Shown: piece by piece, positions 1,369 through 36,212 of the stretch
Layout: every line of letters begins with the position of its first letter
Numbering within the stretch: position 1 is the first letter of the stretch
IMG/VR virus record: IMGVR_UViG_2563366877_000001
Length of the DNA: 37,097 nt
Reading direction: 5' to 3' (one strand)
DNA from: a virus
Taxonomy: Duplodnaviria > Heunggongvirae > Uroviricota > Caudoviricetes
The notes under the pieces: model-generated
Told to the model about the DNA's origin: nothing
Seen by the model: only the letters and a program-made list of their open reading frames with translations
The model's database searches: none
Translations under genes and position numbers: made by a program

Positions 1369-1444
1369 GCCGATATAGCTCAGTTGGTAGAGCAGCGCAT
1401 TCGTAATGCGAAGGTCGTAGGTTCGACTCCTATTATCGGCACCA
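1369..1444 (+). tRNA. thrW: tRNA-Thr (anticodon CGU)
   Basis: 76-nt sequence GCCGATATAGCTCAGTTGGTAGAGCAGCGCATTCGTAATGCGAAGGTCGTAGGTTCGACTCCTATTATCGGCACCA with cloverleaf, anticodon CGT and CCA end; known integration target of P22/SfV-type integrases. Confidence 0.93.
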
Positions 1445-6979: not shown

Positions 6980-7360
6980 TCAGTCAGCCCAACCTGATTT
7001 CGAGTTTATTTGGGTTTCTGACATTGTGTATTTCTTAATCGTGTCATCGTTAAAAAGAATAGTAAGTTCTTTTTTCGTACCGTTCGTTCCATTATGGAAT
7101 AATCCATAGAATGGAATAAAAGTGGTGCCATTAACTTTTACTTTTGCAAAGGCGTACTTCCAGATCTCGTTTCCACTGTCAGTATAGGAAACAGCATCAG
7201 GAGAACCAAAGTAAGATTTAACCTCATTCTTGGTTGTTTTACCTTCCTGAAGTTTAGACTGGACACTAATTTCAGTTTCATTTTTGAGTTGCTGGTTGCC
7301 TGAAGAAGCACACCCAGCCAATACAGATGCCATCATGGCAGCGATTAGGATTTTTCTCAT
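6980..7360 (-). CDS. lipoprotein (moron in immunity region)
   Basis: 126 aa with signal peptide and lipobox (MRKILIAAMMASVLAGC); TATAAT about 20 nt upstream of its ATG; lies between the putative OL/pL and cI. Confidence 0.7.
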   Translation of the reverse strand: MRKILIAAMMASVLAGCASSGNQQLKNETEISVQSKLQEGKTTKNEVKSYFGSPDAVSYTDSGNEIWKYAFAKVKVNGTTFIPFYGLFHNGTNGTKKELTILFNDDTIKKYTMSETQINSKSGWAD

Positions 7361-7589: not shown

Positions 7590-8279
7590 TTAACCATGCT
7601 TCCTGTACGTCTGCGGCATGCTTCCAATGACCTTACCGAATATGAACACCCGGTTCATCTCGTCTTTCTCGATCGGGTCCCACGGCGAGTAGCTCTTGTT
7701 ATCAGAGATAACCAGCAGCTTATCCTTCATCATTTGAAGACGTTTTACATGGGCAGTGTCGTCGTACAGAAACGCATAGATGCCATCACCGTCGAAAGAT
7801 TTAACAGTGATATCAACGAACAGCAGGTCACCTGGTTCGATCGTCCCTGACATGCTGTCACCTCGCACGTTAATGATGCGGATATTTTCCGCCTTCCTGC
7901 CATCGAACATGTGACGAGCATCGTCAAACGAGTACTCAACCGAGCGTAGAACTTCTACAAACTCACGGTTGATTACACCTGGCCCGGCACTGACTTCTAT
8001 ATCAAGAACGTCAATTTTGAAGTATTTGGAATGGCTGACAGTTGATTGTATTGGTTGCACTGTACTGTCTGACATATTTCCAACGCCAGAAGATAACCAT
8101 TCTGCGCGCACACCCAAAGCGTTCGCGATCTCCACGATTTTAGTTGTTTGGTTAGCTTTCCCTGTTTCGATTTTCTGAATAGCAGCCTGGCTAACCCCGA
8201 CCAAATCCCCAAGCGCCTTTTGTGTAAGGCCTCGCGCTAATCTGGCTTCTTTAAGTCTTTCTGAGAGTGTTGTTTTCAT
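7590..8279 (-). CDS. cI: CI-type repressor (HTH_XRE plus S24 LexA-like peptidase domain)
   Basis: 229 aa; N-terminal helix-turn-helix (LTQKALGDLVGVSQAAIQKIE) and C-terminal RGDSM...K autocleavage motifs; divergent from cro. Confidence 0.9.
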   Translation of the reverse strand: MKTTLSERLKEARLARGLTQKALGDLVGVSQAAIQKIETGKANQTTKIVEIANALGVRAEWLSSGVGNMSDSTVQPIQSTVSHSKYFKIDVLDIEVSAGPGVINREFVEVLRSVEYSFDDARHMFDGRKAENIRIINVRGDSMSGTIEPGDLLFVDITVKSFDGDGIYAFLYDDTAHVKRLQMMKDKLLVISDNKSYSPWDPIEKDEMNRVFIFGKVIGSMPQTYRKHG

Positions 8280-8683: not shown

Positions 8684-9223
8684 ATGCAACCACTTACATA
8701 CCAACAGACTAGCGGATTTATTCCGACTGCGGTGATAAATCGTTCTCAAACAAAACAAGCTCCAGGCCACGAAAAAATCCGTGATGCCGTCCGCGCCTGG
8801 TCGGCTGTAGATAATCAGGATGTCGTTGCCGCACTCATTGTGAATGAGTATCGGGAGCAGGGCGACGGCACCATCGATTTCCCTGATGATGTCAGCCGTG
8901 CACGCCAGAAGCTGTTCCGCTTCCTCGATAACAAATTCGATTCTGAAAAATACCGAAATAACGTGCGTGAACTGACCCCGGCAATTCTGGCGGTACTACC
9001 GCTGGAATATCGCGGTTACCTGGTTGAGCAGGATAGCTTCATGACTCGGTTGGCTGAAATGGAAAAGGAACTCAGTGAGGCAAAACAGGCTGTCATTCTC
9101 AACGCACCACGCCACCAGAAACTGAAGGAGATGAGTGAAGGCATTGTGTCGATGTTTCGTGTGGACCCGGACCTGGCTGGTCCATTGATGGCGATGGTCA
9201 CCACCATGCTGGGGGCAATATGA
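8684..9223 (+). CDS. YdaT-family regulatory protein (in the cII position)
   Basis: 179 aa following cro; motif LTPAILAVLPLEYRGYL resembles Rac YdaT; stop overlaps next ATG (ATGA). Confidence 0.6.
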   Translation: MQPLTYQQTSGFIPTAVINRSQTKQAPGHEKIRDAVRAWSAVDNQDVVAALIVNEYREQGDGTIDFPDDVSRARQKLFRFLDNKFDSEKYRNNVRELTPAILAVLPLEYRGYLVEQDSFMTRLAEMEKELSEAKQAVILNAPRHQKLKEMSEGIVSMFRVDPDLAGPLMAMVTTMLGAI

Positions 9224-9309
9224 CAGGTTCAGAAATGGCGAAAGCCGGTCTGCGCGAACAGAACCGACTTTCAGGTGCAAATCGTAACACACTCATTGCG
9301 GGAGGAATT

Positions 9310-10239
9310 ATGGCAAACACTGCTGAGATATTCAATTTTCCAGTGCCGGATGTGGCACAAAAGGAGCCGCGCGTGGCAGATCTCGATGATGGTTATACGC
9401 GCATTGCAAATGAGTTGCTGGAAGCTGTGATGCTGGCCGGATTAACACAGCACCAGCTTCTGGTCTTCCTGGCTGTCATGCGCAAAACATATGGCTTTAA
9501 TAAAAAACTGGATTGGGTGAGCAACGAGCAACTTTCCGAGTTGACCGGGATATTGCCGCACAAGTGTTCTGCTGCAAAAAGTGTTCTGGTAAAGCGTGGG
9601 ATTTTTATTCAGAGCGGGCGGAATATCGGCATTAATAATGTGGTCAGTGAATGGTCAACATTACCCGAATCAGGTAAGAAAAATAAAGTTTACCTGAAAG
9701 AGGTAAATTTACCTGAATCAGGTAAGAAAAGTTTACCCAAATCAGGTAAAGGCGTTTACCCGAATCAGGTAAACACAAAAGACAAACTAACAAAAGACAA
9801 TATAAAACCTTTTTCGTCCGAGAATTCTGGCGAATCCTCTGACCAACCAGAAAACGATCTTCCTGTGGAGAAACCAGATGTTGCAATTCAGAGCGGCAGC
9901 AGGTGGGGGACAGCAGAAGACCTGACCGCCGCAGAGTGGATGTTTGACATGGTGAAGACCATCGCGCCATCAGCCAGAAAACCGAATTTTGCAGGGTGGG
10001 CTAACGATATCCGCCTGATGCGTGAACGTGACGGACGTAACCACCGCGACATGTGCGTGCTGTTCCGCTGGGCATGCCAGGACAACTTCTGGTCCGGTAA
10101 CGTGCTAAGTCCGGCCAAACTCCGCGACAAGTGGACCCAACTCGAAATCAACCGTAACAAGCAACAGGCCGGCGTGACAGCCGGAAAATCAAAACTCGAC
10201 CTGACGAACACTGACTGGATTTATGGGGTGGATTTATGA
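9310..10239 (+). CDS. O: replication initiator O (lambda O-like N-terminal domain)
   Basis: N-terminus (NFPVPD...VADLDDGYTRIANELLEA...RKTYGFNK) aligns to lambda O; start chosen at ATG 9310 (GGAGG 4 nt upstream); alternative coupled start at 9220. Contains the ori iterons. Confidence 0.85.
   Translation: MANTAEIFNFPVPDVAQKEPRVADLDDGYTRIANELLEAVMLAGLTQHQLLVFLAVMRKTYGFNKKLDWVSNEQLSELTGILPHKCSAAKSVLVKRGIFIQSGRNIGINNVVSEWSTLPESGKKNKVYLKEVNLPESGKKSLPKSGKGVYPNQVNTKDKLTKDNIKPFSSENSGESSDQPENDLPVEKPDVAIQSGSRWGTAEDLTAAEWMFDMVKTIAPSARKPNFAGWANDIRLMRERDGRNHRDMCVLFRWACQDNFWSGNVLSPAKLRDKWTQLEINRNKQQAGVTAGKSKLDLTNTDWIYGVDL
9661..9772. repeat. origin of replication iterons (ori) inside the O gene
   Basis: Four copies of the 17-bp TTACCYRAATCAGGTAA at 9661, 9709, 9733, 9756 plus a degenerate copy at 9690, followed by an AT-rich tract (9773-9815), as in lambda ori. 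Confidence 0.7.
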
Positions 10240-10937
10240 AAAACATCGCCGCACAGATGGTTAACTTTGACCGTGAGCAGATGCGCCGGATAGCCAACAA
10301 CATGCCGGAACAGTACGACGAAAAGCCGCAGGTACAGCAGGTAGCGCAGATCATCAACGGTGTGTTCAGCCAGTTACTGGCAACTTTCCCGGCGAGCCTG
10401 GCTAACCGTGACCAGAATGAACTGAACGAAATCCGCCGCCAGTGGGTTCTGGCTTTCCGGGAAAACGGGATCACCACAATGGAACAGGTTAACGCTGGAA
10501 TGCGCGTAGCCCGTCGGCAGAATCGACCATTCCTGCCATCACCCGGGCAGTTTGTCGCCTGGTGCCGGGAAGAAGCATCTGTTAACGCCGGGCTGCCAAA
10601 CGTCAGCGAGCTGGTTGATATGGTTTACGAGTATTGCCGGAAGCGTGGCCTGTATCCGGATGCAGAGTCTTATCCGTGGAAATCGAACGCGCATTACTGG
10701 TTGGTTACCAACTTGTACCAGAACATGCGGGCCAATGCGCTGACTGACGCGGAATTACGGCGCAAGGCTGCCGATGAACTGACCTGTATGACAGCGCGAA
10801 TTAACCGTGGTGAGGCGATACCTGAACCAGTAAAACAACTTCCTGTCATGGGCGGTAGGCCTCTAAATCGTGCACAGGCTCTGGCGAAGATCGCAGAAAT
10901 CAAAGCGAAGTTCGGACTGAAAGGAGCAACTGTATGA
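10236..10937 (+). CDS. P: replication protein P (DnaB helicase loader)
   Basis: 233 aa, near-identical to lambda P as recalled. Confidence 0.95.
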   Translation: MKNIAAQMVNFDREQMRRIANNMPEQYDEKPQVQQVAQIINGVFSQLLATFPASLANRDQNELNEIRRQWVLAFRENGITTMEQVNAGMRVARRQNRPFLPSPGQFVAWCREEASVNAGLPNVSELVDMVYEYCRKRGLYPDAESYPWKSNAHYWLVTNLYQNMRANALTDAELRRKAADELTCMTARINRGEAIPEPVKQLPVMGGRPLNRAQALAKIAEIKAKFGLKGATV

Positions 10938-11107
10938 CGGGCAAAGAGGCAATTATTCATTATCTGGAGACGCACAAGAGCTTCTGTGCGCCGGACGTTG
11001 CTGTGACAACAGGTGTGACATTAACCAGCATAAATCAGGCTGCGGCAAAAATGGCGCGGGCAGGAATCCTGGTCATTGATGGTAAGGTCTGGCGAACGTT
11101 TGTTTAA
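10934..11107 (+). CDS. ren: Ren-like protein, C-terminally truncated (57 aa)
   Basis: Not in ORF track. MTGKEAIIHYLETHKSFCAPDVA... matches the lambda Ren N-terminus; AAGGAG Shine-Dalgarno; ends early relative to the 96-aa lambda Ren. Confidence 0.6.
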   Translation: MTGKEAIIHYLETHKSFCAPDVAVTTGVTLTSINQAAAKMARAGILVIDGKVWRTFV

Positions 11108-11253
11108 CGGTTAGCTACTCAGGATGATAGGGCGGGGCAAGTGAGTATGAAGCGGATTTTCAGGAATGCCATCAGAGTTTGGAAATAAAGTGGGTTTTCT
11201 AGTGGCAAGAGACTTGATAATATTTAGTTCTTTGAATCCAAGGAGATAGGGTT

Positions 11254-11748
11254 ATGAGAAAATTTATTTTAGCCTTTGTTATAAGTGCCTCGTTTACAGC
11301 AAATGCTGGTGTAGAGAAGTTAGGGCCGTGGATAACAAAGTCTGAGATAAATAAAATGACTGACCAGACTGACTTTGTGGCTCTTAATTTATCACCAGAT
11401 TCATATAACAAAGCAGGTACTGATCGTGCAACTTCACTGGTGTTGCGTTGTAGTGATAACAAAACAGATGCCTATTTATCATTCAATGATTATATGGGTT
11501 CGGACAACCCAAGAATTACAGTGCGGTTAGATGGCGGAAAGCCGGTCAAGAGTGTTTGGGGAGGTGGGGAAGGCGGTGATTCTGCATTTGCTCCACAACC
11601 AATACAATTTATAAAGACCTTGGCTAAGCATAAAAAAGCTATTTTTGGGTTTGAACCTTATGGATCAACTATGCAAGTAGTTGAGTTTGACTTGTCTGAG
11701 ATTGATAAGGTTGTGGAAAAAATTTCACAGTCTTGCAATTGGAAATGA
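11254..11748 (+). CDS. exported hypothetical protein (moron)
   Basis: 164 aa with cleavable signal peptide (MRKFILAFVISASFTANA); AT-rich codon usage unlike neighbours; followed by a terminator. Confidence 0.6.
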   Translation: MRKFILAFVISASFTANAGVEKLGPWITKSEINKMTDQTDFVALNLSPDSYNKAGTDRATSLVLRCSDNKTDAYLSFNDYMGSDNPRITVRLDGGKPVKSVWGGGEGGDSAFAPQPIQFIKTLAKHKKAIFGFEPYGSTMQVVEFDLSEIDKVVEKISQSCNWK

Positions 11749-11767
11749 CAAAAAAATTTCATATGAA

Positions 11768-11790
11768 CCCAGTTGGCGCTGGGTTTTTTA
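11768..11790 (+). terminator. rho-independent terminator
   Basis: CCCAG-ttggcg-CTGGG stem-loop followed by TTTTTT directly after the exported-protein gene. Confidence 0.6.
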
Positions 11791-12791
11791 TTTCAGTAGC
11801 CAATAATGCATTCAAAATCTCTTACTTGAGAAACGGCCTATTTGAGATTTCAGTCGTGGCAGGATGATCAGTTGATTCGAGTATTGACGCATTTGCGTTC
11901 GGAGCGATTACAGTAGATTGTAAATAATAATGAGAAACACATAGCCACATAGCCACCCCGTGGTATTGAAACCATATAATGTTGGATTTGAAAACAGATC
12001 TTTTCCCATGTATTAATAACTACATCCCCGCGAGTAATTCAAAAAGGAGGGCCCAATTTTGTCCGAGTTTTTGTATTCCCCCGCATGCCGCTGCGGAGCA
12101 CTACATCTGAGTGTCTGACTAGGGGATAAAATTAGACTGGATAGTGAGAAGAAAGTGGCGCGCTAGGCTGTGCCGAGTGCTACCAGTACACCTTGGGGGT
12201 GTGCAGCTTTCGCCGAGACTGTAGTGGGTATCGGTTAATGCACGAAAAACCGAGAGGTCAGACAACCAATTTGCCGTAGGATTGTTTCCGGTGCGATACC
12301 GGTCTACTAACTGAAAGCAATGCGAAAAAGCATAAACTCGGTCCTTCAGTCGCCCTACACACTATTTACTAAGAAGGGCTGAAGCATGGATACAATTATT
12401 ACATGGATGGGAGATCGTCTGTTGGGGGGACACAAAAATCCGATCTGCGGCAGATGGCGATCACTGGATTAACTTCCGCGATTTGTTCAACAATTTTGTA
12501 CACTGAAAAATTAAAACATGGTGAGCCTATTAACCCAAACGAAGAAGAAAAACTTTATAGGCTTTGGTATGAAGGAAACGCTTGAAAGAATAAAGCACAA
12601 TTAAAACCTTTGATTTGCGATAATCAACTTGCCATAATTAAGTAATCGGAGCCTGAACAACTCCGGTGACTTCTGCGCTAAACGGGGACGTTTATGCGCA
12701 CATACAATCCAAACTATCTTCTCCTTTCACAGATGCAGAAATGCACCTGCAATTCTTTGCATCTAGCGTTTGACCTCTGCGGAGGTGAAGC

Positions 12792-13247
12792 GTGAACCTC
12801 CCACAAGACGGCATCAAATTACATCGCGGCAACTTCACCGCTATCGGCCAGCAGATCCAGCCTTATCTGGAGGAAGGCAAATGCTTTCGCATGGTGCTTA
12901 AACCGTGGCGCGAGAGACGCAGTCTTTCCCAGAATGCACTCAGCCACATGTGGTACAGCGAAATCAGTGAATACCTCATCAGCAGGGGTAAAACGTTCGC
13001 CACTCCAGCTTGGGTAAAAGATGCTCTCAAACACACATATCTCGGTTATGAAACCAAAGACCTGGTTGATGTCGTAACCGGTGATATCACCACTATCCAG
13101 TCGTTACGCCATACCTCCGATCTTGATACCGGAGAGATGTATGTCTTCCTGTGTAAGGTTGAAGCCTGGGCGATGAATATTGGTTGCCACCTGACTATTC
13201 CACAGAGCTGCGAGTTCCAGCTGCTGCGCGACAAGCAGGAGGCGTAA
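12792..13247 (+). CDS. ninB: NinB-family recombination protein
   Basis: 151 aa with the R-S-L-x-Q-N motif shared with lambda NinB; GTG start with GGAGG Shine-Dalgarno. Confidence 0.7.
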
Positions 13248-14059: not shown

Positions 14060-14196
14060 TGTTTGAGTTTAATATGGCAGAACTTCTTCGCCACCGCTGG
14101 GGGCGTCTGCGCTTATATCGTTTCCCCGGTTCTGTTTTGACCGATTACCGGATACTGAAGAATTACGCCAAAACACTGAAAGGAGCTGCCGCATGA
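14056..14196 (+). CDS. ylcG: small protein YlcG
   Basis: 46 aa, [27 protein letters not shown]..., matches DLP12 YlcG; not in ORF track. Confidence 0.7.
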
Positions 14197-14882
14197 ATAC
14201 CCAATATTTACAGTATGTCCGCGAGCAACTCATTGTGGCTACTGCTGATTTGAGCGGAGCAACGAAAGGCCAGCTTGAAGCCTGGCTGGAGCATGCACAA
14301 TTTGATACTGGTACATATAAACGAAAGAAGCCGCGCATTCTGGATGAGGTAACGGGCAGGATGATTACGCTGGATAATACGCCGATTTCTGGTAAGCAGT
14401 CGTACGCAAAAGGTTCATCCATTGCACTGGTCAGCCAGGTTGAGTTCTCAACCTCGTCATGGCGCCGCGCGGTTCTGTCTCTCGAAGAACATCAGAAAGC
14501 GTGGTTGCTGTGGAGTTACAGCGAAAGTGTTCGCTGGGAACATCAGGTCACCATAACGCAGTGGGCATGGAGCGAGTTTAAGACTCTGTTGGGTACCAGG
14601 AAAATTGCAGGTAAAACACTGGAACGTTTGAAGAAGTTGATCTGGCTGGCGGCACAGGATGTGAAGAACGAGCTGGCAGGGCGTAAGACCTATGAATACC
14701 AGGAGCTGGCATCACTGGTGGGAGTGACATCAAAAAACTGGTCTGAGACATTCACTGAACGCTGGGTTGCAATGAAGCACATTTTTCTACAGCTTGATAG
14801 CGAAGCTTTATTGCTTCTAACGAGAACACGTTCAAAACAAAAGGCGACATTTTTACAGCAAAATATTGCAAAGCTGGATTAA
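14193..14882 (+). CDS. putative late-gene antiterminator (Q-like), assigned mainly by position
   Basis: 229 aa directly after rusA/ylcG and before a promoter-like element and the lysis cassette; family not confirmed. Confidence 0.45.
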   Translation: MNTQYLQYVREQLIVATADLSGATKGQLEAWLEHAQFDTGTYKRKKPRILDEVTGRMITLDNTPISGKQSYAKGSSIALVSQVEFSTSSWRRAVLSLEEHQKAWLLWSYSESVRWEHQVTITQWAWSEFKTLLGTRKIAGKTLERLKKLIWLAAQDVKNELAGRKTYEYQELASLVGVTSKNWSETFTERWVAMKHIFLQLDSEALLLLTRTRSKQKATFLQQNIAKLD

Positions 14883-15103: not shown

Positions 15104-15907
15104 CTATTTCTTTTTGGGAAGTGGATACTTTAAGCTAACGTTTTGAGTTTCTATATCTCGTGGCCCTCGAGTTTTATCATAAAAATACCAGATATTAAAT
15201 TTTCTCTCAGTGTGCCATGTATCATATTGCAAGTGATCCCAGCCTAAATATGAAGCAACATAGTTTGATACTCTTATTTTGGCTTCAGATGAAGCTTTTC
15301 CTTGATATGCGCACATAACCGCACCTAAGAAAAAATCGGCTAGCTGAATGTTTTCAGATGCTTTAGAGTCTTTTGTCACTACACTGCTGATTATCCCTTT
15401 ACGACCAAATTTTCTATTCAATATGTTATTGGCAATAACATTTAGTTCTTCATCAGCCTTTTTATAACGAGATGCGATAGGATCAACTTCAATCCTGAAG
15501 TAACTGTCTCTTTCAGGGTGTGCAGAAATTACAGAGCTAATTTTTGTGGTAATGAGATTTGTGAAGTGCTTTCTCCTTGCCAGGTCATAATCTCCATTAT
15601 GAAATGCCTTATTTACTATTGATTTTTCAACCACGATACAATGAAAAGCTAGCCAAGGAACTCTAAAGAATAAGTCGATCAGCTCAAGATAAAATTCAGA
15701 GTATCTTTTTGAATGGGCTTTTTGCCATTTTATTTCTTCATAAAAACCATGCTTTCTGCGTAGTTCTCTGATTAGTTGACAGAAATCCCCACGGCGTTGG
15801 TACTTCATCCACAGACTGCCAAAGCCGTAGAAACGTTGTCCATCAATGCCAGATTCATCGCAAGCAATATGCCAAATTAACTTACCAATGTTATCTTTTT
15901 CTGTCAT
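15104..15907 (-). CDS. hypothetical protein, AT-rich moron antisense to the late operon (candidate defence/accessory gene)
   Basis: 267-aa ORF on the opposite strand between the Q-like gene and the holin; visibly AT-rich; N-terminal HIACDESGIDG and later QLADFFLGA motifs; no similarity to phage structural or lysis proteins. Confidence 0.65.
   Translation of the reverse strand: MTEKDNIGKLIWHIACDESGIDGQRFYGFGSLWMKYQRRGDFCQLIRELRRKHGFYEEIKWQKAHSKRYSEFYLELIDLFFRVPWLAFHCIVVEKSIVNKAFHNGDYDLARRKHFTNLITTKISSVISAHPERDSYFRIEVDPIASRYKKADEELNVIANNILNRKFGRKGIISSVVTKDSKASENIQLADFFLGAVMCAYQGKASSEAKIRVSNYVASYLGWDHLQYDTWHTERKFNIWYFYDKTRGPRDIETQNVSLKYPLPKKK

Positions 15908-33524: not shown

Positions 33525-36212
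<2,688 letters not shown>

Follow-up and report, generated by a model that had tools for sequence, protein, structure and literature searches.

A truncated ren gene and a moron for a predicted exported VasI-domain protein in a lambdoid prophage

The DNA analysed here is a stretch of 37,097 nucleotides from a tailed virus of the Caudoviricetes (IMG/VR record IMGVR_UViG_2563366877_000001), referred to below as the window. The window includes a lambdoid prophage inserted next to a tRNA-Thr(CGT) gene, and the locus under study is its ren-to-nin cargo slot. The locus contains, from left to right, the replication gene P, a ren open reading frame (ORF) of 57 codons, an untranslated remnant of ren, and a cassette of about 0.6 kb (approximately 11199–11827) with a gene for a 164-residue protein (Table 1). 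The early end of the ren ORF and the AT-rich signal-peptide gene that follows it were both described in an initial annotation made from the sequence alone, and both are confirmed. The GC content is 0.34–0.45 in 11100–11800, compared with 0.50–0.58 in 10200–11000.

Table 1. Features of the window discussed in the text, with positions counted from the first nucleotide of the window
Feature	Position	Strand	Details and basis
417-aa ORF	start of window		
tRNA-Thr(CGT) gene	1369–1444		
Integrase-size ORF	after tRNA-Thr gene	minus	
126-aa lipoprotein ORF	6980–7360	minus	lipobox VLAGC; just downstream of cI-like repressor
cI-like repressor gene	7590–8279	minus	
O-like gene	9220–10239		
Replication gene P	10236–10937	plus	Pfam Phage_lambda_P, 8.8e-62
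Truncated ren ORF	10934–11107	plus	57 codons and TAA; ORF list
Nonsense codon TAA	11105–11107	plus	TAC (Tyr58) in lambda and PhiR26_1; alignments
Untranslated ren remnant	11108–11198	plus	about lambda codons 59–88; alignments and frame translations
Left junction	11190–11212		ren homology stops, tail-slot moron homology starts; alignments A1 and A3
Candidate extended −10 element TGATAATAT	11215–11223	plus	TG at 11215–11216, hexamer TAATAT at 11218–11223; motif pattern only
Ribosome-binding site AAGGAG	11240–11245	plus	8 nt before ATG; homologous to GGGGATAGGGAT of relatives
Gene for 164-aa predicted exported VasI-domain (IalB-like fold) protein	11254–11748	plus	
Predicted Sec-type signal peptide	11254–11307	plus	residues 1–18, MRKFILAFVISASFTANA, cleavage before Gly19; hydropathy and A-x-A rule
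Intrinsic terminator	11765–11795	plus	9-bp GC-containing stem GAACCCAGT-TGGC-GCTGGGTTT and T-run; scan
Right junction	11826–11829		blastn breakpoints 11826/11828
3' remnant of 202-aa gene (intact in IdasGreatGrand)	11830–11916	plus	28 codons and TAG; translation
DLP12-type ybcN/NinB-like gene	12792–13247		NCBIfam PRK09741, 7e-84
Q antiterminator gene	14193–14882		

The ren allele and its remnant

The region from 10200 to 11178 is 90.6% identical to lambda (blastn). As in lambda, ren follows P directly, and its start codon overlaps the P stop codon in the sequence ATGA. Lambda Ren (NP_040633) has 96 residues, and 47 of the 57 residues encoded in the window are identical to the corresponding N-terminal residues of the lambda protein. 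The ORF matches the 57-residue family phrog_7054 (1.8e-43) and the Ren-like family phrog_142 (2.3e-19). Unlike lambda ren, the window copy has a stop at codon 58 and a frameshift, and its 3' end is lost at the moron junction. The predicted product, translated from the start that overlaps the P stop, is limited to the N-terminal 57 residues.

The homology to ren of lambda, PhiR26_1 and PhiR12_1 extends past the TAA, to 11178 in blastn and to about 11195 in the MAFFT alignment. In the original frame, the remnant after the stop reads RLATQDDRAGQVSMKRIF, and its lambda counterpart is RFATREEREGKMSTNLVF. A 1-bp deletion between 11161 and 11162 moves the remnant to the +2 frame, where it reads FQECHQSLEIKWVF and corresponds to FKECRQSAAMKRVL of lambda. 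Since the homology runs about 90 bp past the TAA, ren was inactivated by point lesions and not by an insertion at codon 57. The initial annotation had proposed an insertion that replaced the 3' end of ren. The window does contain extra DNA relative to lambda, PhiR26_1, PhiR12_1 and Turner, but the TAA is a point mutation, and only about the last eight codons were replaced, being lost at the recombination joint.

The ren remnant is about 66% identical to lambda by our own count. A reading of this divergence as decay was tempered, as intact alleles with RL(S/T)TQDE-type C termini, P0254 and P0264, are closer to the remnant.

The short allele was compared in 42 copies, comprising the window, 40 full-length IMG/VR loci and the phage isolate IdasGreatGrand (PP925829.1). 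TAA occupies codon 58 in all 42, and the spacing from the ren ATG to the downstream ATG is identical at 320 nt. The initial annotation had singled out related phages with an equally short functional Ren as an observation that would speak against it. Because the same 57-residue form occurs in IdasGreatGrand, in the IMG/VR prophages and in phrog_7054, the short Ren is, as judged from these sequences, a fixed and circulating allele that is not peculiar to the window lysogen. These occurrences bear on the length of the protein and not on its function. The 57-codon part is polymorphic: the 42 copies encode 12 protein variants and show 18 variable sites per 100 nt. This part is a mosaic of ren alleles, which points to recombination with intact copies. 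Its ratio of non-synonymous to synonymous polymorphism (pN/pS) is 0.34, a value that is uninformative because this recombination confounds it.

The gene is most likely a pseudogene. The Prokaryotic Genome Annotation Pipeline (PGAP) calls its equivalent in strain PEC1011 a 'protein ren' pseudogene with a missing C terminus, and the frameshift in the downstream remnant indicates decay after truncation. It is rather unlikely that the 57-residue Ren is instead a functional short form, a minimal winged-helix domain kept by selection, although several features agree with this. The ORF is open in every copy and through all 12 protein variants, its start still overlaps the P stop, and residues 1–55 match winged-helix regulator families. 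The form constitutes a PHROGs family of its own and is encoded by a phage isolate, and its largest protein cluster covers 261 contigs under the NCBI name MarR-family regulator. However, the confounded pN/pS gives no sign of strong constraint. In an AlphaFold2 (AF2) model of full-length Ren, which is poor (predicted local distance difference test, pLDDT, 53) and shows a winged-helix-like order of elements, the cut would fall within the last strand and remove three short C-terminal helices; this is weak evidence on the truncation. Ren is dispensable for growth of lambda. The viability of phages with the 57-residue form is therefore silent on its function, which was also counted against a functional short form. 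Another decayed copy of ren is renD of DLP12.

One ren variant of the same diverged allele, P0203 (84 residues, from one 894-nt ENA contig), has Asn in place of the stop at codon 58. It continues through RLATRVDRAGQVGRKRISRNAIRVWK to the original-frame stop beyond the 1-bp deletion. From its sequence, P0203 would be either a revertant or a sequence error.

Ren protects lambda-type phages against RexAB, so growth of the window phage in a rex+ cell is where its loss matters. Beside the cI-like repressor, neither a RexA nor a RexB domain was detected, and the ORF there encodes a lipoprotein. The initial annotation had suggested that the truncation may matter where rexAB is also absent. The absence stands, but the argument was loosely put. 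Selection to retain ren is weaker in a phage without its own rexAB, which agrees with decay and not with a special consequence, and ren may be decaying in such a background here. The lipoprotein shows a weak match to the BamE domain that is under the cut-off (E 1.6e-4). Placed where lambda has rexAB, it would be a second envelope-targeted cargo gene of the prophage.

The moron cassette and its relatives

By its sequence, the cassette has the composition of a classic moron: a predicted extended −10 promoter, a ribosome-binding site, the 164-residue ORF and an intrinsic terminator. It is absent at this position from lambda, PhiR26_1 and PhiR12_1, whose homology to the window is lost at 11178, and phage Turner shares the window only from 11828 onward. 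IdasGreatGrand shares the cassette. Alignments to lambda and related phages, of the kind that the initial annotation had recommended, place both junctions of the insertion (Table 1), and the left junction contains, in our own reading of the alignment, a short common GGGT(T/A)TT stretch. At the right junction, IdasGreatGrand has about 1.84 kb of extra DNA encoding a 134-residue and a 202-residue ORF. The remnant of the 202-residue gene in the window is translated as ETAYLRFQSWQDDQLIRVLTHLRSERLQ before its stop codon, whereas the intact protein of IdasGreatGrand ends in ETAHVKFQPWQDDKWSRVLPHLRSDRLQ. The window resembles an IdasGreatGrand-type arrangement minus these 1.84 kb, joined at the short similar sequence TTACTTGAGAAACGG.

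Homologues of the 164-residue protein at 55–81% identity, from Klebsiella and Pantoea prophages and 39 IMG/VR loci, do not adjoin P or ren. Their genes belong to the tail modules of siphoviruses, in which they follow the major tail and DUF6246 genes. Where the downstream gene is readable, they lie 43–95 nt upstream of an ORF of tape-measure size (about 730–1220 residues). The tape-measure-size ORFs of Klebsiella and Pantoea match Pfam TMP_3 or Phage_HK97_TLTM. On the 5' side, the tail-slot cassette is flanked in most of the flanks examined by the terminator of the preceding gene, followed by a conserved TGnTAGGAT element about 40 nt before the ATG and the ribosome-binding site GGGGATAGGGAT. 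On the 3' side, its own GC-hairpin and T-run terminator directly precedes the tape-measure gene's ribosome-binding site. In alignment A3, the homology of the window to these cassettes starts at about 11212 and includes the terminator. The comparison indicates that the cassette normally resides between tail-assembly and tape-measure genes, in Klebsiella and Pantoea siphovirus prophages and in unassigned viral contigs.

The element TGATAATAT of the window aligns with the TGnTAGGAT of the tail-slot relatives. Of 51 distinct flanks, 37 have the strict promoter motif at −39 to −49, compared with 3.3% of shuffled upstream sequences, and 46 carry a terminator. The terminator of the window is homologous to those of the tail-slot morons, and the differences among E. 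coli copies lie mostly in its loop. Of the two signals that the initial annotation had assigned to the gene, the terminator is thus found as such, whereas the promoter takes the form of a comparative motif. Its reading of the gene as a moron appears right and is supported by the comparison with relatives.

Whether in the ren or in the tail slot, the gene is part of a lytic operon and is oriented like its neighbours. This arrangement would suit a lytic-cycle role, in which the protein would work in the infected cell's periplasm, for instance by preventing secondary adsorption or injection or by modulating lysis. The protein would then be made mainly during phage growth, from pR read-through in the window and from late tail transcription in the tail slot. 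Such a role is improbable. Most of the tail-slot flanks examined have a terminator upstream, a terminator of the cassette's own downstream and its own promoter motif, and such a bracketed anatomy is that of prophage-expressed morons (PMC3594210). In addition, the gene is absent from most related phages and so is not needed for growth.

The cassette is found in 84 of 5426 complete E. coli genomes, with at least 99% identity in 81 of them, and always adjoins 'protein ren'. A scan of genome contigs gave only three species-representative genomes with a close relative, too few for a taxonomic survey. The distance from the cassette to ybcN takes at least four values among the copies, and their O alleles are about 66% or 95–100% identical. 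One relative is integrated beside ybhC, whereas the window prophage lies beside tRNA-Thr. The varied downstream spacing, O alleles and integration site indicate that the block of P, truncated ren and the moron gene spreads by recombination among lambdoid phages. These sequences indicate that in E. coli the cassette moved once into the ren slot and then spread together with P and the truncated ren as a module.

Other phages carry other genes in the ren-to-nin interval. PhiR26_1 contains the defence gene PD-lambda-1 on the opposite strand (L004 3086–4588), which marks the slot as a recurrent site for defence cargo. Turner has a QacE-like gene and others there.

The predicted exported VasI-domain protein

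The N terminus of the 164-residue protein has the features of a signal peptide. A positively charged n-region (MRK) is followed by an 11-residue hydrophobic core (F4–F14) and by A-N-A preceding Gly19, and this pattern is kept in 25 homologues. Residues 1–17 are the low-confidence part of the AF2 model. No cysteine is present at the +1 position, so the protein is not a lipoprotein.

The initial annotation had assigned the protein to no recognisable family, which does not hold. Residues 56–163 match positions 78–184 of the Pfam VasI model (PF11319, formerly DUF3121) with 26.7 bits against a gathering threshold of 26.5 (E 5.3e-6). The protein matches phrog_1848 over its full length (2.7e-70), and PGAP names the RefSeq E. 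coli protein (WP_001224618.1) 'type VI secretion system-associated protein TagO'. The VasI/TagO equivalog model TIGR03360 gives 14.4 bits (E 0.026), whereas its cut-off requires 124.2. These scores show that the 'TagO' label is a domain-level match and not evidence for a role in a type VI secretion system (T6SS).

A word-indexed search retrieved only 30 close homologues, with 53–100% identity and E values from 1e-98 to 1e-48. The full-length ones have 164–167 residues, and all those that carry a name come from Enterobacterales. Trp26, Cys66, Cys161 and the motif GFEPYG are invariant in the alignment of 25 homologues. An exhaustive profile search extended the family to 3829 representatives at E ≤ 1e-3 and 1231 at E ≤ 1e-10, mostly proteins of about 160–350 residues in which the domain is C-terminal. 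Sampled matches score 46–76 bits on Pfam VasI, yet fall under the TIGR03360 cut-off. Pfam-VasI proteins with 65–76 bits are reached by the family profile at about 1e-26 to 1e-30.

The AF2 model of the protein consists of a β-sandwich and two helices (pLDDT 78.7; predicted template modelling score, pTM, 0.75). The domain can be placed in the VasI/TagO (PF11319) superfamily and models as an IalB-like β-sandwich. Foldseek gave no PDB match at E ≤ 0.001 and, against BFVD, only uncharacterised phage proteins with template modelling (TM) scores of about 0.5–0.6. Compared with PDB sequences, the family profile returned noise only (E 1.4). Bartonella IalB (PDB 3dtd) and a polar flagellar motor LPHT-ring component (8z5n_A) are 9–11% identical to the window protein and provide no transferable mechanism. 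A further possibility is that the protein has nothing to do with phages, serving as a periplasmic shield against incoming T6SS effectors or colicins or as an IalB-like factor in colonisation or invasion. This is improbable, as the IalB-fold match carries no mechanism, no known immunity family in Pfam or NCBIfam is similar to the protein, and no effector gene adjoins its gene.

Among 42 E. coli-type copies, the gene contains 13 synonymous and 7 non-synonymous variable sites (pN/pS 0.15), which indicates purifying selection. In 33 of 43 copies, the encoded protein is the same. The homologues, the profile matches and the pN/pS value together show that the ORF is not a chance ORF. The gene is rare, as the E. 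coli count above illustrates, and one copy is interrupted by IS1, as might be expected of a decaying passenger without current function. Such a status is nevertheless highly improbable given the low pN/pS and the identical copies. Moreover, length, cysteines, promoter motif and terminator are kept across genera in the homologues at 55–81% identity.

P2-like phages carry more distant VasI-domain proteins (25–28% identity) as cargo between ogr and int, and such proteins also occur as cargo in Pasteurella and Brucella phages. The P2-like phages 500465-2 (L097 3072–3965) and P88_4B11 (L098 3039–3932) encode a 297-residue protein with a C-terminal VasI domain that is about 27% identical to the window protein. 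It is preceded by a 110-residue protein, annotated as a zinc ribbon in 500465-2, and its gene is flanked by ogr/mokW on one side and by the integrase (P88) or the prophage end on the other. Among larger proteins, the phage family is closest to two Pfam-VasI proteins of about 200 residues, P0038 and P0301, found in an integrase/YfjJ island and next to an Abi_C gene (L099 6216–6815; L101 2090–2710).

The name TagO raises the question of whether the protein is a genuine T6SS accessory, working with a T6SS of the host, for example by improving effector delivery, as is reported for VCA0118 of V. cholerae. Its membership in Pfam VasI and the profile links to higher-scoring VasI proteins agree with this, as does the presence of a VasI gene in E. 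coli T6SS clusters (PMC6033998). VCA0118 is also predicted to be exported; the killing of amoebae and E. coli requires it, whereas Hcp secretion does not (PMC3166118). The two proteins have homologous C-terminal domains. However, VCA0118 has 227 residues, whereas the window protein lacks the N-terminal third of the Pfam model (about 75 positions), lies far below the TIGR03360 cut-off and is encoded by a prophage and not by a T6SS cluster. Its neighbours are P, ren and ybcN. All contexts read for VasI relatives are phages or mobile elements; a T6SS cluster was not met in any readable locus, including those of P0038 and P0301, which as two cases are anecdotal. The cassette also moves between phages whose hosts may or may not have a T6SS, and TagO/VasI is listed without a known function in a review of 2026 (PMC13584744). 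A T6SS accessory role is therefore unlikely.

Possible role and further cargo of the prophage

On balance, the locus probably combines a decayed ren with a moron for a Sec-exported periplasmic VasI-domain factor that acts in cell-envelope conflict, with superinfection exclusion as the most likely form. In the lysogen, the moron gene would use its own promoter, and in lytic growth it would additionally be transcribed by read-through from pR. The protein would be exported, oxidised by DsbA and act as a disulfide-bonded periplasmic binding module. It would protect the lysogen in envelope conflict, in the first place by superinfection exclusion, through a disturbance of DNA injection by incoming tailed phages at its periplasmic stage.

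Two known systems resemble this proposal. HK97 gene 15, the first named moron, confers superinfection exclusion when expressed from the prophage, an effect dependent on the tail region of the superinfecting phage (Juhala/Hendrix morons; Cumby et al. 2012, summarised in PMC3594210). Its product gp15 is a small inner-membrane protein related to YebO (PMC3594210). Like gene 15, the window cassette is an addition to a lambdoid genome, differs from it in GC content and appears to form a transcription unit of its own. The relatives of the window gene occupy the same slot between tail assembly and tape measure, and the product is likewise predicted to be envelope-targeted. Unlike gp15, the mature product of the window gene is predicted to be a soluble periplasmic β-sandwich of 146 residues in the VasI family. 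In addition, the window copy is located in the ren-to-nin slot and not in the tail slot, and exclusion is known for gp15 and proposed here.

The second system is SDIC4B of Serratia, a small protein whose fold resembles VasI and whose gene lies outside T6SS clusters. On its own it is reported to provide 10–200-fold protection against phage (bioRxiv 10.1101/2024.01.28.577318). Its sequence in the preprint supplement shows a signal-peptide-like N terminus and two cysteines. With 157 residues, SDIC4B is similar to the window protein in size, N terminus, number of cysteines and predicted fold, and both genes lie outside T6SS clusters on mobile or defence DNA. SDIC4B is tied to BrxR islands, whereas the window gene belongs to a phage.

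Several points weigh against an exclusion factor beside a decayed ren. The ren gene is intact in many lambdoid phages without rexAB, which weakens the link between the lack of rexAB and the decay of ren. A simple sigma-70 scan upstream of the 164-residue ORF called no promoter, and the promoter call thus rests on comparative alignment; the candidate is a motif match with a −35 element that is weak in our own reading. The Pfam VasI match is barely above threshold and covers only the C-terminal 105 or so model positions. A scan of PADLOC-DB v2 with three small proteins gave zero matches at E up to 1. The sharing of a slot with HK97 gene 15 is guilt by position. SDIC4B has no Pfam match and no similarity to the family profile (hhalign probability 0.4%, E 0.16), so this precedent is an analogy of fold and architecture and not a homology. 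Finally, the T6SS-cluster member VCA0118 has a T6SS-related phenotype (PMC3166118), which speaks for a connection to the T6SS and not for exclusion of phages.

A broader version of the exclusion proposal can be offered only tentatively. Exported VasI-domain proteins may be recurrent cargo of temperate phages and mobile elements that blocks injection in the periplasm, possibly by binding tape-measure or ejection proteins. Its slots would be, equally tentatively, that of HK97 gp15 in siphoviruses, ren-nin in lambdoid phages, the ogr-int end in P2-like phages, and integrase islands.

The locus itself is a case of ordinary prophage mosaicism, a decayed accessory gene beside a moron, and both parts had already been named by annotation pipelines. 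The precise breakpoints of the ren-moron region are new, as is the indication that a small gene for a predicted exported VasI-domain protein moves among unrelated temperate phages as a unit of promoter, ORF and terminator, in classic moron slots that include the one of the gp15 exclusion gene. This makes the cassette an inexpensive and manageable system in which to test the role of the VasI/TagO/IalB-like fold and superinfection exclusion at the level of the envelope. If exclusion by a block of injection is the true role, it would be the first function of the VasI/TagO domain and the first mechanistic handle on it. The VasI of the T6SS might then likewise bind a tail-like component that crosses the periplasm.

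In 11100–12850, a search for structured RNA gave no Rfam match at E ≤ 1 and fold z-scores of −0.4 and −0.7. The segment 12024–12359 is 79% identical to the Klebsiella phages Kp4856-1 and Kp4862-1, and its longest ORF has at most 48 codons; its sequence points to a conserved non-coding or decayed segment. A gene for a DUF3800 protein (15104–15907) follows Q directly on the opposite strand, in a typical cargo position. In the late/tail region of the prophage, the minus strand of 34584–34706 contains a full-length match of 150 bits to the Hfq-binding small RNA isrC (Rfam RF01387).

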